From an uncultured virus (IMG/VR IMGVR_UViG_3300011867_000002) (taxonomy: Duplodnaviria; Heunggongvirae; Uroviricota; Caudoviricetes), in IMG/VR virus record IMGVR_UViG_3300011867_000002, positions 124,001-188,000 of that record: 64,000 nucleotides of DNA. One strand, written 5' to 3'. The notes under the pieces are model-generated. The model was given only the letters and a program-made list of their open reading frames with translations, had not been told where the DNA came from and did no database searches. How positions within the stretch are numbered: the stretch's first letter is position 1; each line of letters opens with the position of its first letter. Shown one piece after another: positions 3,914 through 8,763 of this stretch. The position numbers and the translations under genes are program-made.

Positions 3914-6157
3914 TTACCGACGATAACCTTCAAACGGGGAATTACTGAAGAAGCCATGGTTTTCTCGGTGTGCAAGTGCCCCTGGATTGGTGGCCCACTT
4001 CGGCGCTTTCTGGTTACCCGTAAAGCGCGCACGTTTCTTCCACTTGTCGTCCTTCACATTTTGCAGGAGTTGATCCAGACTGTGGGTCTCGCCACGATCC
4101 CACATGATGCGGGAATCGAGTCGACGCAGTTCTTGTTCCAAACGGTGCGAGACAAATTCGTCTGGCTCGTTCTTGAGTTGTTCCATCAGCATGTCCATCT
4201 GCTGGCGGTACTCGGCCTGTTCCTCGGCCAGCCACTTATCTTCCAACGTGACTTCTTTTCCGCGTTTGGCAATCTTCGACATGATCTTGGTTGGATCAAT
4301 GCCGTAGTGCACCAAGTTAGTACCTTGGGCGAGCATCCAGTTGACCAAGAGCCAACCGATGGTCATGTCATCGTGTTCACCAGGTGGGTGGTCGACGCGG
4401 CCATTCTTGGTAATCAAGCCCACAGTTTGATCAACCAGTGCTTTGTCGCTCATGCGATCCATACACAAACTTGCTGCTGCCTGCAAGGTGGTGGTGTAGA
4501 GTTCATTACGGCTCTGAGCGCCGGCGCCAGTCGTGGCAAAGCCGAAGAAGCGCTTGAAGCGATCCATCCAGTCGGATGGACGACGGTTCATTGGTACCCC
4601 GCATACTTCCTTGTATCGCTCACGGTGCAGGCCGTGGTCATTCACTACCCAATTGAACAGGCGTTTGAAAGGATCGATGCCAGCAGCTGCCAGATTCACA
4701 ATCAGGTAGTCAAGAATCATGCCACCCGTCGATTTGCGTTCAATGATACCGGTGACGTTCGGGTACTGGATCATGAAGAGGCACAGCCACTTCGAGAACA
4801 TGATCAAGTTGATTTCGTTGTACGAACCCGCCGCCACGACTTCCAGACTTTCCACATCCATCAGGACGAAGGAAATCTCATCACGACCAATCGCTTCACT
4901 TGTATCCATGCCGAATACAAATTTGCCGGACGCCATGCGCGCTGCAATCTGACTCTTCGGGATGTACCAGCGGGTGATGTAGTTAAACGGCTTGGTGATT
5001 TCTGTGTACGCCACATCTTTCACCGAGCGCACCATCATCTCCAACACGTCCAGCGGCAACGGCGAGGTTTGGCTACCCGAAGTCCACATGTTGAAGTAGT
5101 CTCGGTTTGCATCATCGCCTTCAGCGAACGAGTCAGCCAACTTGCCAGCTAACCATGCGTCGGATTTACCCAATTGACGGTGGTTAAAGGTCGCATTGAC
5201 AGCGGCTTTCTTGATCTTACCTTCTACCCGGCAACCAGCCAACACGGTGCGTTCCAAATCTTCTTGGTCTTCACAGTCGTACAGGGCTTCTGACCAAATA
5301 CAAGCATTCGAGATCAGCTTGTACATGTACGCGCCGTCTTTGTCGTCCTTCTTACCGGCGGTCGTGGTGAAGATTGTGCCGTATGGGGAACCTTGTTCCT
5401 TAGCACGGTCAACCGCCGCGCCAGTAGCTGCCAATGCAGCCGGCAATGCAATCTTGATGTTTGGTTGGAAAGGACCTTCGTCAATCTGGAAGATCGGCGA
5501 AGTCAGACCACGACCCATGTTGATCGCACGCTTCTCCGACATTTGCGGCACGTGCGTCTTGTACCGGTTGCCATTTGCCATCACCGTGATCTCTTCGGTG
5601 TTGTTGGCGTCGTCCGGGTGTTTTAGTTGCAAGTATTTCGGTAAGTCGGCAATGATGGACTTCATGCGCTCAATGTTGGCGCGGCGCAGCGTGTCATCCT
5701 TGGTCAACAAGTTGATGACGGTCTTCTCGCAAATGAATTCCATCAAGAGTACCATCAGCACGTCGGTCGAGAAGGATTTACCCGTCTGACGAATCTGAAT
5801 CAGGAATACGGTAATGTGATTGAAGAACAACCACCAGAGACAGATGTTACCGCGGTTCGCCTCCACCATCACGCCGTCGACGCTACCGTTACCCGGTGCG
5901 AGTGCGACTTCGCGGAAGAAGTACCACGGGTTGAGTTTACACTCGACGCCAATCGCAGTCATCTGCTCCAGCGTCAGATTTGGGTCACGTGGATCGACGC
6001 CTTTCAGGGCCGGGTTCAAGAGTGCTAAAAAGAAAGCACAGTTCTTGACACCCATGGAATCTAAGAGGGCAGCCATCCTTACAAAGCTGCGGTTACGGGT
6101 ATCCCAGTCGGGACGGGCGGTTGGGTATTTTAACCAGTCACGGGCAAATAAAATGAT
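3914..6157 (-). CDS. terL: Terminase large subunit (phiKZ gp25-like); start probably non-AUG (ATC at 6157)
   Basis: Walker A RQTGKS, Walker B FQIDE, coupling motif TTT, RNase H-like nuclease GMDTS and C-terminal HDD. AAGGAG RBS lies 6 nt upstream of ATC-ATT-TTA-TTT. Confidence 0.92.
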   Translation of the reverse strand: MILFARDWLKYPTARPDWDTRNRSFVRMAALLDSMGVKNCAFFLALLNPALKGVDPRDPNLTLEQMTAIGVECKLNPWYFFREVALAPGNGSVDGVMVEANRGNICLWWLFFNHITVFLIQIRQTGKSFSTDVLMVLLMEFICEKTVINLLTKDDTLRRANIERMKSIIADLPKYLQLKHPDDANNTEEITVMANGNRYKTHVPQMSEKRAINMGRGLTSPIFQIDEGPFQPNIKIALPAALAATGAAVDRAKEQGSPYGTIFTTTAGKKDDKDGAYMYKLISNACIWSEALYDCEDQEDLERTVLAGCRVEGKIKKAAVNATFNHRQLGKSDAWLAGKLADSFAEGDDANRDYFNMWTSGSQTSPLPLDVLEMMVRSVKDVAYTEITKPFNYITRWYIPKSQIAARMASGKFVFGMDTSEAIGRDEISFVLMDVESLEVVAAGSYNEINLIMFSKWLCLFMIQYPNVTGIIERKSTGGMILDYLIVNLAAAGIDPFKRLFNWVVNDHGLHRERYKEVCGVPMNRRPSDWMDRFKRFFGFATTGAGAQSRNELYTTTLQAAASLCMDRMSDKALVDQTVGLITKNGRVDHPPGEHDDMTIGWLLVNWMLAQGTNLVHYGIDPTKIMSKIAKRGKEVTLEDKWLAEEQAEYRQQMDMLMEQLKNEPDEFVSHRLEQELRRLDSRIMWDRGETHSLDQLLQNVKDDKWKKRARFTGNQKAPKWATNPGALAHRENHGFFSNSPFEGYRR

Positions 6158-6167
6158 GATAATCTCC

Positions 6168-6953
6168 TTAGCACTTAACGTGCGCAGCAAGTGGAGTGAA
6201 AATCCAGCCTTGGTAGGGGTAAAGATTTCCTTTCCTTGTTCGATTGTTCTTGACAATGTTCAAGCCAAGACCGAGTCTTTCACATGCTTGTTTGAGTGAT
6301 TGAAAAATACAAACCTGTTTTGTTTCAACGTTATGTGCGTAAATCTCACACCGCGTGTTCAGCGTGTTTTCTTCACATTCATAAGCCATTAACGTCGGCC
6401 AAGGATGGTCGTTGTCGAGCTTGAACAACATGTTTTCATGTTTGATCCTACCCGCAGTCAACGAGTTCAAATGGCGGTTTAAGACGTCAGCATTGATAAG
6501 TAATTGTCGAGCACAGTACGAGATCGAACGATACCGCTTAATCTTACCCGTGATCGTATCTTTAACGAGAACAGCCTTTTCGTTATCGAATAAACCCATC
6601 TCTCGCGCATGTTCCATATTTTCTTTACCAGTCACCCATTCGAGGTTGTTAATTGCATTGTTGGTTTTGTTCCCGTCGATATGGTTGACTTGGAGTTCTG
6701 CGTAAGGAGTATAGCGATGGCGTTCAGGTCGCGGTACAAACAACAAGGCAAGCAGACGGTGGACAGGGAAGTGTCGGTACCTCCCGTCGTATCTGAAAGT
6801 TGTCCCGCGATATCCTTTTGGGCAGATATTCGTGAAGTGGGCTTCTTTCCTTCGATAGTTATAAAGATCACCGTTCAGATTGATGAGAATAGGAACTGGG
6901 ACGAAAGGCATTTCGTAAAAACCGGGATAATCTGGATGTTCTTTCGGTTGCAT
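6168..6953 (-). mobile_element. Free-standing HNH homing endonuclease (HNH plus NUMOD1/IENR1-like repeats)
   Basis: VHRLLA...VNHIDGNKTNNAINNLEW HNH motif. Two C-terminal helix-turn-helix-like modules (YRSISYCARQL, FQSLKQACERL). More AT-rich than the flanking genes. Confidence 0.9.
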
Positions 6954-7083
6954 AATTTCTTTCTGGAATAAGGAATCAAATTATATATGAATCCATACTC
7001 TCAAAAGAAATCATCACAATAATCTCCTTTTCGAATGACGAGCATAAACCCCCGCCACCCGAGTCGGATGACGGGGAGTTTAC

Positions 7084-8763
7084 TTACGCCGTTTGGCGGA
7101 CGGGCAGACCGGAGATACCCAGCTGGATATCGTTGTCGGCTGTCCGCTTGAAGAAGCGCACGAAGAGGGTCGACGCGTTAGGAACGGCCTCGCTGATCGT
7201 GTGCAGCAGTTTCCACTCGGCGATCGGGAACTCGATCGAGCGGTTGTTGAACACCAGCGCGAAGTGCGTTGGCACCGGCGCTTTGCTTTCCTTGTTCGAG
7301 TCGTACAACGGCAGCGAACGGTAGTACAGACGGTCGAGCCAGTCGTCGAAGTTCGTCAAACCCATGCTGATGCTGACGCGCCAGTTGTTGGTGTCGATGA
7401 AGGTCGACTCGGCGTAGTTCTGGACACCGTACACGGGATTCTGGCCCGGTTCGAAACCGATCGTCCAGTTGGTGTCTTTCTCTTCGCCAGGACGCAGGAG
7501 CGTCACGTCGATGTACTGGACGTGTTTGTACTTGTTGAAGGTGGCGTTCACGCTTTGCAGGTCGACCGACACCGCCAGTCGCTGCGTGGTGCCATACTCC
7601 AGCGGCTGGAGCGTCCGGTTCGCTTCCTCGAAACGCACATGTGGCGTACAACGCCAGATGTTGGTGCGCTCCAGATTCGACAGGAACCATTCCAGACGAT
7701 AACCATCGACGGCGCCCAGCCAGACTGGGTAAGCAAACAGCTTGACCGAGTACGAGCCATTGGCCACCAAGGTGCGTGCCCGGTAGTGCTTGGTCACGTT
7801 GTTGTTCTCGCCCACGGTCAGGTCGTACGCGATCTCGTCGCGCGACAGGTTGTAGTTGAGGATCAACTTGACTTCGTCACCCACCACGGTCAGGATGTAG
7901 TCTTCCAGACCAAACAGCGAGAACTTGGTGCCGTCGACCGGATGCTTCTCGATCGTGCCATCGCTGTAACGCACCACGCCGACCAGGTTCAAGCCCTGCA
8001 TCAGAACGTTGATCGGGTACTGGATCAGGGTGGCATCCGAGTTCGACAGGAACGGCGTATCGAGGTACACGTCGGTCACATAACGCACAGCCGTATTTGG
8101 CGCGGTAATGAAGTCGGTATTCTCGACCAGCACTTGGCGCTTCGACAGCAGCACGTTGTCGTCGGTGAAGAACGCCACGTACAGTGGTTCACCGTTTGGA
8201 ATCTTTTCGGTACACTTGAACGGCACCACCGTCTTGCGGGTCCGGTTGCCCATGATCTCTGCCAGTTCCAGTGGCACGTCTTGGCCCACCAGATTGCCGC
8301 CGGCGTCGTACACGGCACTGATGACTTTGCTGGCGGCACCAGCGAAACCACCACGCATCACACGCGCATACTTGGCACGCGCAGCCCAGACGAAGCAGCG
8401 TTGCTCGATGACCATGTCGTAAGGCACCACCTTGTCGTTCAGGTAGGCGCGGAAGGTGCTGCTTTGTGGGCCTGGTCCCACGCCGAGCAGGATGTCGTCG
8501 GGTTCGAGCGAGATGTCGACGTTGCCGCTACCGGTTCGCACCAGCGTGGACTTCATCGTAACCGGATCGATTTCCGTGACCTTGTACATGACTTCGGTAT
8601 CGGTATCGAGCACCCGGTCCTTGAGGTTCGGGACGAAACGGTTTGCGCCGATCGTGCCATCGAAAATCTCGAACAAGGCCCATTGCCGGAAACCACGATG
8701 TGGGTCCCAGATCGGTTGGACGTTGTCGACACTCCCAACGGCACTGTTGTTTTCTACAGCCAT
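7084..8763 (-). CDS. Virion structural/baseplate protein (phiKZ gp26-like)
   Basis: 559-aa ORF with strong codon bias, between terminase and sheath as in phiKZ-like phages. Confidence 0.75.
   Translation of the reverse strand: MAVENNSAVGSVDNVQPIWDPHRGFRQWALFEIFDGTIGANRFVPNLKDRVLDTDTEVMYKVTEIDPVTMKSTLVRTGSGNVDISLEPDDILLGVGPGPQSSTFRAYLNDKVVPYDMVIEQRCFVWAARAKYARVMRGGFAGAASKVISAVYDAGGNLVGQDVPLELAEIMGNRTRKTVVPFKCTEKIPNGEPLYVAFFTDDNVLLSKRQVLVENTDFITAPNTAVRYVTDVYLDTPFLSNSDATLIQYPINVLMQGLNLVGVVRYSDGTIEKHPVDGTKFSLFGLEDYILTVVGDEVKLILNYNLSRDEIAYDLTVGENNNVTKHYRARTLVANGSYSVKLFAYPVWLGAVDGYRLEWFLSNLERTNIWRCTPHVRFEEANRTLQPLEYGTTQRLAVSVDLQSVNATFNKYKHVQYIDVTLLRPGEEKDTNWTIGFEPGQNPVYGVQNYAESTFIDTNNWRVSISMGLTNFDDWLDRLYYRSLPLYDSNKESKAPVPTHFALVFNNRSIEFPIAEWKLLHTISEAVPNASTLFVRFFKRTADNDIQLGISGLPVRQTA

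Follow-up and report, generated by a model that had tools for sequence, protein, structure and literature searches.

A candidate AUC/AUU start codon in the terminase gene of a phiKZ-related phage, and its recurrence among relatives with and without an upstream HNH endonuclease

The window analysed here, 64,000 nucleotides of an uncultured virus of the Caudoviricetes (IMG/VR record IMGVR_UViG_3300011867_000002, positions 124,001 to 188,000), encodes on its minus strand the terminase large subunit (TerL), directly behind a gene for an HNH endonuclease. No canonical start codon with a Shine-Dalgarno (SD) sequence is found at the conserved TerL N-terminus. The best reading of the locus is that terL is probably initiated at a near-cognate codon, ATC 6157 or ATT 6154, with low TerL output, on a homing cassette. 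ATC, ATT or ATA (ATH) occupies the Met position in 9 of 137 distinct terL 5' ends, and 6 of these 9 have no HNH gene upstream, with about 12 loci represented by only 300 nt of flank. The phenomenon is broader than a preliminary description of this DNA had held, and less dependent on the parasite.

Start codon of terL in the window

The features at the start of the gene are as follows.

3914..6157, minus strand: terminase large subunit gene terL, 747 amino acids, matching phrog_2
6155..6157, minus strand: ATC at the conserved Met1 position, proposed terL start, aligned with the ATG of locus L001 and with Met1 of protein P0006
6152..6154, minus strand: ATT, alternative near-cognate start, next codon downstream (SD pairing -10.1 kcal/mol)
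6159..6169, minus strand: second, downstream ribosome-binding copy, its sequence shared in part with the HNH stop (TAAGGAG), assigned by repeat match
6188..6190, minus strand: in-frame TTG within the HNH gene, terL start of the database gene calls and the main rival (SD pairing -4.0 kcal/mol)
6254..6256, minus strand: in-frame TTG within the HNH gene, rejected as terL start (SD pairing -3.9 kcal/mol)

The terL frame reads K-E-I-I-I-I-L-F-A-R-D-W and its first in-frame ATG is Met28 (6076), which bears out the preliminary description that the ribosome-binding copy overlaps the HNH stop and that no ATG precedes ILF. The same description had dismissed TTG 6256, inside the HNH gene, as having no ribosome-binding site (RBS); its SD is indeed weak, but two further in-frame codons upstream of the ATC, TTG 6190 and CTG 6187, had been overlooked.

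Alignment with HNH-less relatives placed the ATG of the nearest such locus, L001 (AAGAAGATTATC-ATG-ATC-CTG-TTT), on ATC 6157 of the window (AAGGAGATTATC-ATC-ATT-TTA-TTT), and ATC 6157 is therefore the ancestral start position. A 95%-identical relative carries ATG at the exact place of the ATC. Another contig encodes a near-identical TerL, P0006, that begins MILFAKDWLR and departs from that of the window at just three of 747 residues (1, 6 and 10), and the virion proteins adjoining terL show 2 differences in 559 residues between the two. A Logan assembly (32-kb contig, P0007) has the same Met-less TerL N-terminus, from reads that may be shared with the window.

SD pairing, computed with an assumed E. 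coli-type anti-SD that may differ from that of the host, was -9.1 to -10.1 kcal/mol for ATC 6160, ATC 6157 (-9.1) and ATT 6154 (-10.1), compared with -4.0 for TTG 6190, -3.9 for TTG 6256 and +0.8 for Met28. TAAGGAG lies 6 nt from ATC 6157 and 9 nt from ATT 6154. Coding constraint starts directly after the near-cognate codon, as judged from conservation, substitutions and a structure model; in the P0006 model the predicted local distance difference test (pLDDT) score is 91-93 over residues 1-30, and Met28 lies within helix 23-34.

The best cultured match of TerL is that of Burkholderia phage FLC9 (57%), with 41% for phiKZ gp025; of the traits bearing on a place in the Chimalliviridae, the analysis covered this likeness and a common neighbour gene. 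No second full terL is present in the record. Searches found no sigma-70-like promoter on the coding strand, no solved structure matching TerL by sequence, no tRNA gene in the record, and no C-domain of initiation factor 3 (IF3) in the record, which is 82% complete. Outside the window, the tail of a short open reading frame (ORF) at G000:C1:75545-75727 is 42% like TerL residues 47-107 (GIDPYDPDLT...ECKVNPWFF).

Recurrence of ATH starts among relatives

A total of 204 terL 5' ends were gathered, including two GenBank records, of which 138 were distinct at 97% identity; L022, with a misplaced N-terminus, was removed from the counts to leave 137. ATC stands at the Met position in the window, the L023 group, L130 and L173, ATT in L146 and L150, and ATA in L128. 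In L156 and in the cultured Xanthomonas phage RTH11 the codon is ATT, and a GTG precedes it by three codons; this GTG has no SD of its own and forms part of the SD for the ATT. Seven of the nine ends have no ATG, GTG or TTG in the six codons upstream. Five (the L023 group, L128, L146, L150 and L173) have no ATG, GTG, TTG or CTG anywhere from the upstream in-frame stop to the Met position, and their next canonical codon comes at position 26-35. Four are found in several contigs: three each for the L023 group and L146, two each for L130 and L150.

On a FastTree tree of 124 rows, from which 14 ends were left out (13 as short loci), the nine ATH ends need nine changes, at least six of them forced by well-supported branches, and terL start codons interchange among ATG, GTG, TTG, ATT, ATC and ATA between close relatives. 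Median SD pairing was -8.7 kcal/mol for ATH alleles (n=9) and -5.4 kcal/mol for ATG alleles (n=84; p 1.5e-4, taking no account of kinship among alleles). Over residues 2-27, ATH alleles share 15-21 of 26 positions with the ATG consensus, the ATG median being 17, and close pairs show a synonymous excess in the N-terminus (5:0 for L023/L146, 10:2 for L146/L150, 9:3 for window/L001).

Comparison, under a coding filter, of the sister genomes of L148 (ATG) and L147 (ATT) revealed that terL alone among 217 tested genes (302 pairs) loses a canonical start. The reverse comparison, L147 to L148, flagged 2 of 213, one of them an ATG-to-ATC change without an SD on either side; G001 to G000 flagged 2 of 83, neither of them ATH, with terL outside the tested set. 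Among the proteins, 125 N-termini were examined and 119 could be scored, of which 5 have no Met close to ILF. Two of these belong to the window phage and one, P0114, is L131; P0070 and P0121 have Val, which may represent a GTG start. Among cultured phages, 14 of 314 matching were examined, giving 12 with ATG, PCH45 with GTG and RTH11 with ATT/GTG.

Two further variations at the terL 5' end were seen. In 37 of the 138 distinct ends the ATG has moved 1-6 codons upstream (M-x-I-L-F and longer), by which the ATG-ATH junction is likewise broken. The terL frame of L022 (3818-7033) is 1071 codons long, being extended at the N-terminus and carrying a large insert (possibly an intein or fusion).

Since six ATH ends have no HNH gene, the endonuclease is not needed for the non-AUG start, and HNH-less ATH alleles carry no upstream terL remnant. 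One tight clade contains all four states: HNH with ATC (L023), HNH with ATG (L108), no HNH with ATT (L146, L150, L156) and no HNH with ATG (L148, L177). From this clade and the HNH-less ATH alleles together it follows that the start can do without an upstream mini-ORF and without being coupled to the HNH stop, which also makes splicing or bypass unnecessary. The downstream RBS of the window is homologous to the native RBS of HNH-less L001. The preliminary description had held that the endonuclease rebuilt an AUC/AUU start coupled to its own stop, tying terL expression to the parasite. Initiation at ATC/ATT is supported by the SD and by the relatives; a need for the endonuclease to build the start, and the tie to the parasite, are not supported, in view of the L001-type RBS, the six HNH-less ATH lineages and the four-state clade.

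The HNH cassette and its insertion site

6168..6953, minus strand: HNH homing endonuclease gene, 261 amino acids, HNH_3 plus NUMOD-like part, predicted from domain and profile matches
6976..7014, minus strand: mini-ORF of 12 codons (MISFESMDSYII, then a stop), putative decayed and stranded terL 5' end (28-nt repeat, 12/2000 shuffles)
7019..7029, minus strand: terL ribosome-binding region, upstream copy, with SD AAGGAG (-8.7 kcal/mol)

The 11-mer AAGGAGATTAT stands on both sides of the HNH gene, at 7029-7019 and 6169-6159, and the upstream copy leads into the 12-codon mini-ORF at 7014-6976, both as previously described. There is no third copy in the window even at one mismatch (in the shuffle control at one mismatch, two matches were reached in 6 of 100), and exact copies in the whole 221,460-base genome number two only. 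The likeness goes beyond the 11-mer, covering about 28 nt and reaching into ATGATTTCTTTTG and ATCATTTTATTTG, with an equal score in 12 of 2000 shuffles. The TAA stop of the HNH ORF sits within TAAGGAG, the terL SD.

The HNH protein matches PF13392 (E 2.6e-9, above cut-off) and, weakly and below cut-off, PF22083; its family profile matches PDB 1u3e (I-HmuI) at 3.6e-14. The G+C content of the gene is low, 0.42-0.44 versus about 0.54. It has its own start and stop and leaves no room for an intron core, and a search of Rfam intron families (E<=10, positions 5800-7300) gave no match, none of 6 sub-threshold matches being an intron. It is predicted to be a free-standing I-HmuI-like homing endonuclease. 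Its relatives lie directly upstream of terL in 8 of the 137 distinct loci, and the gene is optional there, being absent from L001-L003 and present or absent inside the L023-L148 clade.

Insertion at the terL initiation region with an original start stranded upstream, as the preliminary description proposed, recurs in relatives, with a breakpoint near codon 7. Stranded terL heads lie 5' of the HNH gene in L170 (MILFLDD), L106 (MITFTED), L109 (MVVFKND) and RTH11 (VILFCYE), and L118 has two nested heads at 2061-2100, MILFAR then VILFTYD, which suggests two successive homing events. Against an ungapped profile of terL heads, shuffles scored as well in 0 of 1000 cases for L106, L118 and L170, 1 for L109 and 7 for RTH11, so that 5 of the 6 relatives tested, L016 not among them, gave a significant score, and only 1 of 129 HNH-less upstream regions scored 10 or more. 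In P0019 the HNH protein is fused to a terL head beginning MILFAED. Most stranded heads end at codon 7, ahead of a Trp present in 125 of 129 HNH-less alleles. Some 7 terL codons are stranded upstream of the cassette, and downstream of it stands a second terL start. The cassette would consist of the HNH gene, a donor RBS and the first terL codons, landing at about codon 7. Mosaic 5' ends (L150 and L108 differ at 7 of codons 2-10 and at 0 of codons 11-27) and the confinement of differences from P0006, compared as protein only, to residues 1, 6 and 10 would fit a short co-conversion tract.

Several observations concern the cassette and its family more widely. In L106 compared with L146, and in L108 compared with L150, the cassette takes the place of a conserved intergenic region of about 150 nt upstream of terL, and in L106 and L108 its left junction lies just past TATGCCG at the terminator tail. 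In RTH11 (L103, OQ790161.1; 2585-3373) the HNH gene is unannotated, an opposite-strand ORF and a 67-residue tail being annotated instead, and the gene, with QVSHRNGNKVVNSVDNL as its HNH motif, may be in decay. Another HNH subfamily, related but longer at the C-terminus, occurs at another locus, not adjoining terL, in L111-L117 and L121-L123, and also in the records of L001-L003. Members of about 400 residues with an additional degenerate HNH-like part at the N-terminus (L109, L016, L170; P0013-P0021) include three that precede terL. Scans of viral contigs with a single HNH protein and with an exact junction pattern gave no match; a scan with a broad HNH alignment gave mostly unrelated HNH proteins, with terL at 1 of 80 loci among the matches listed.

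A predicted hairpin over the HNH start

6948..7019, minus strand: predicted RNA hairpin, mini-ORF codons paired to the initiation region of the HNH gene and to its AUG at 6953 (folding)
6994..6997, minus strand: TATG within the hairpin, beyond the arm over the HNH start, weak candidate internal late promoter
7043..7046, minus strand: TATG, candidate phiKZ-type late promoter motif (4-mer, weak)
7049..7077, minus strand: terminator-like hairpin 3' of the virion gene (13 pairs, 9 G-C, T tail)
7084..8763, minus strand: upstream virion structural gene, 559 amino acids, phrog_3430, immediately 5' of terL in HNH-less L001-L003

Folding of 7019-6948 revealed a feature beyond the preliminary description, a hairpin of -24.8 kcal/mol (z -6.25, 0 of 200 shuffles; pair probabilities 0.84-1.0). 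Its 5' arm consists of mini-ORF codons and covers the HNH initiation region with AUG 6953. L118 has a hairpin of the same design (z -5.61), L170 reaches z -1.8 and L106 is not significant, so that 2 of the 5 loci folded have a strong hairpin. In a duplex test, the number of controls out of 1000 was 9 for the window, 3 for L118, 34 for L108, 65 for L106, 109 for L170, 267 for RTH11 and 715 for L109. An alternative hairpin at 7030-7003 on the minus strand (z -3.6) would hide the upstream SD in place of the HNH start; it and the fold over the HNH start exclude one another.

TATG occurs at 7046 and, within the hairpin, at 6997, and L118 has TATG at a like place. This tetramer is the phiKZ late motif (PMC12809450), and a transcript from TATG 7046 would carry the mini-ORF, the HNH gene and terL. 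Hairpins that hide an RBS and are relieved by a late promoter are described for T4 and Aeh1 endonucleases (PMC2988022).

Proposed explanation and its strength

In E. coli, initiation at AUA, AUC and AUU reaches 1-2% of the AUG level, and AUC has been seen to give Met (bioRxiv 10.1101/063800), and IF3 represses near-cognate starts (PMC2268962). For the window we propose SD-directed initiation with formylmethionyl-tRNA at ATC 6157 or ATT 6154, in which the strong SD (TAAGGAG) would partly compensate the poor codon. TerL output would then be low, which may be bearable for an enzyme of which each capsid requires only a few molecules. The ATH start would have arisen repeatedly in phiKZ-related phages and would function without any HNH gene; re-initiation past the HNH stop may contribute slightly in the window and would not be required. 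The cassette, comprising the HNH gene, a donor terL RBS and about the first 10 codons, would land about 7 codons into a recipient terL and strand the old RBS and codons upstream. In the window these stranded codons may have evolved into the hairpin's 5' arm, hiding the HNH start and keeping the nuclease low. The motive for losing the ATG may be a lowering of TerL, escape from the nuclease, or both.

Several points weigh against this explanation. The window itself has TTG 6190, CTG 6187 and TTG 6256 in frame, and its case is therefore weaker than that of the five ATH relatives in which no such codon is available. Its SD and ATC are predicted to be partly paired (unpaired 0.34 and 0.23), the SD energies depend on the assumed anti-SD, and none of the 13 cultured phages examined besides RTH11 has an ATH start. 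As to the cassette, the ungapped profile is not significant for the mini-ORF of the window (517/1000) or for the head of L108 (68/1000), which carries a one-base insertion; L106, L109 and RTH11 show a weak hairpin or none, and L108 and L170 a modest one.

If near-cognate initiation holds, at least six flips of a core phage gene to ATC, ATT or ATA amount to a natural replicated test of SD strength against a poor start codon, and also probe how little terminase a jumbo phage needs. The insertion would illustrate a route by which an intron-less endonuclease enters an essential gene without splicing, landing in the first codons and bringing a spare start. In practice, gene callers probably misplace the start of these terminases (P0003, P0007, P0114), and the RTH11 HNH gene is mis-annotated.

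Alternative explanations

Within the near-cognate reading, a possible though tentative motive for the loss of ATG is immunity: the nuclease site would span the start codon, and ATH alleles would be immune as carriers or resistant as HNH-less phages. RTG-AT is intact in 1 of 8 HNH loci and 83 of 129 HNH-less loci (Fisher p 0.0055), and an ATH start is found in 3 of 8 and 6 of 129, respectively (p 0.009). The Met position of L118 is ATT despite a new ATG two codons upstream, and the mosaic terL 5' ends point the same way. However, tests on independent pairs were not significant (median p 0.125 and 0.625), a strict ATH count gave 2 of 8 and 5 of 129 (p 0.054), and L108 keeps ATG-ATT next to its HNH gene. 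The pattern scan demanded ATH at codon 2, and the HNH-less count of intact sites is therefore inflated and the contrast biased. Cut-site immunity, which the preliminary description had raised, is thus suggested by the Fisher test and is not sustained by the independent pairs (p 0.125). A fuller version, in which the HNH family recognises an ATG-ATH-YTN-TTY gene head and phages escape through AUC, AUU or AUA with a stronger SD, as carriers or as resistant bystanders, is rather doubtful. If true, the start codon would be a battleground in which the packaging motor falls under the control of host IF3 and the nuclease reuses the gene head it has captured to silence its own translation.

Initiation at TTG 6190 (or CTG 6187 or TTG 6256), with an extension of 11-33 residues and the ATC a later neutral loss, is unlikely. 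TTG 6190 is the start chosen by the gene callers (P0003, P0007), TTG is a better start codon than ATC (bioRxiv 10.1101/063800), and short TerL extensions are tolerated (phiKZ +2, Goslar +8). Against this, SD pairing is -3.1 to -4.0 kcal/mol at these codons versus -9.1 at the ATC, a strong SD is retained at native spacing before the ATC, and five ATH relatives have no such option.

It is very improbable that the ATC reflects faulty sequencing or assembly or marks a dead lineage, or that translation begins at Met28. ATC is one base from ATG and the near-identical P0006 begins with Met, but the second assembly agrees with the window and the same feature occurs in eight other distinct 5' ends, several of them in multiple contigs; Met28 has no SD and lies within a predicted helix.

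Splicing or bypass over about 850 nt, joining a true start at the mini-ORF AUG to terL, is scarcely credible, in line with the preliminary description, which had ranked it lower. A strong SD precedes AUG 7014 (-8.7 kcal/mol), the two ends can form a 14-bp duplex in isolation, upstream remnants in relatives retain ATG or GTG, and a 10-nt bypass in a phage terminase offers a precedent (PMC10732093). Yet no intron family matches, the spare sequence is limited to 22 nt from the mini-ORF stop to the HNH start, with none following the HNH stop, the probability of the long-range pairing is about 1e-7 in the whole-transcript ensemble, described bypasses span 10 and 50 nt (PMC10732093), and six HNH-less ATH alleles have no insert to skip and no upstream remnant. 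Pairing of the two RBS copies was examined as a candidate feature and rejected: it is good as an isolated duplex and lost in the whole transcript, and ATGAT and ATCAT are reverse complements by construction.

That a frameshift or read-through at the stop of the HNH gene yields TerL fused to the HNH protein has next to no likelihood: the open terL frame reaches 34 codons into the HNH gene and the HNH TGA of the L023 group is in frame with terL, but the frame relation varies by locus (+1 in the window, 0 in L023) and a fusion is impossible for HNH-less ATH alleles.

Comparison with known systems

AUU-started genes, free-standing HNH enzymes and RBS hairpins each have precedent. A literature search, with subscription papers and supplements outside its scope, returned no report of recurrent ATH terminase starts or of the insertion-with-spare-start design, and the accessible part of a review of nucleus-forming phages (PMC12908238) mentions neither.

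HNH terminase cofactors of the HK97 gp74 type are reportedly encoded next to terL. The HNH protein of the window differs in being I-HmuI-like and of 261 residues, and it occurs in only 8 of 137 distinct loci; it is therefore not a required packaging part. T4 gene 60 and the terminase of Streptomyces phage Hau3, like terL here, are essential phage genes seemingly unreadable by standard rules; they skip 50 or 10 nt within the gene, whereas terL of the window needs no skip (PMC10732093). Bypassing is marked by a short gap with matched take-off and landing codons, while the gap here would measure about 850 nt, and six ATH alleles lack it. Nor did the Rfam search show the ribozyme core of a group I intron flanking or overlapping the ORF.

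The free-standing phage enzymes T4 mobA/mobE and Aeh1 mobE, and the I-HmuI-type domain, resemble the window HNH in combining HNH with a C-terminal NUMOD-like part and no intron. T4 mobA/mobE and Aeh1 mobE are likewise optional between sister phages and low in G+C, and are associated with a short co-conversion tract in a neighbour gene, such as may have formed here. The window HNH, a predicted nuclease, differs in lying within its neighbour's first codons and duplicating the initiation region; free-standing T4 enzymes are described as intergenic, with cut sites hundreds or thousands of bases distant (PMC2988022).

The hairpins of I-TevI, I-TevII, I-TevIII, segB and Aeh1 mobE hide the endonuclease start (PMC2988022), as the hairpin of the window is predicted to do, and likewise have a late-promoter-like motif inside. 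The window differs from them in that the 5' arm is supplied by the invaded gene, as its putative stranded head, with an SD and AUG of its own in front.

For near-cognate initiation, T4 gene 26 is reported to have an internal AUU start. Confirmed natural starts that are not AUG, GUG or UUG are very few in bacteria, with two in E. coli (bioRxiv 10.1101/063800). There, infC and pcnB (AUU) have a near-cognate Ile codon read as Met, with low output and sensitivity to IF3 (bioRxiv 10.1101/063800, PMC2268962). The proposed terL start would be of this kind, with the difference that it belongs to a core phage packaging gene whose start codon switches repeatedly between close relatives.

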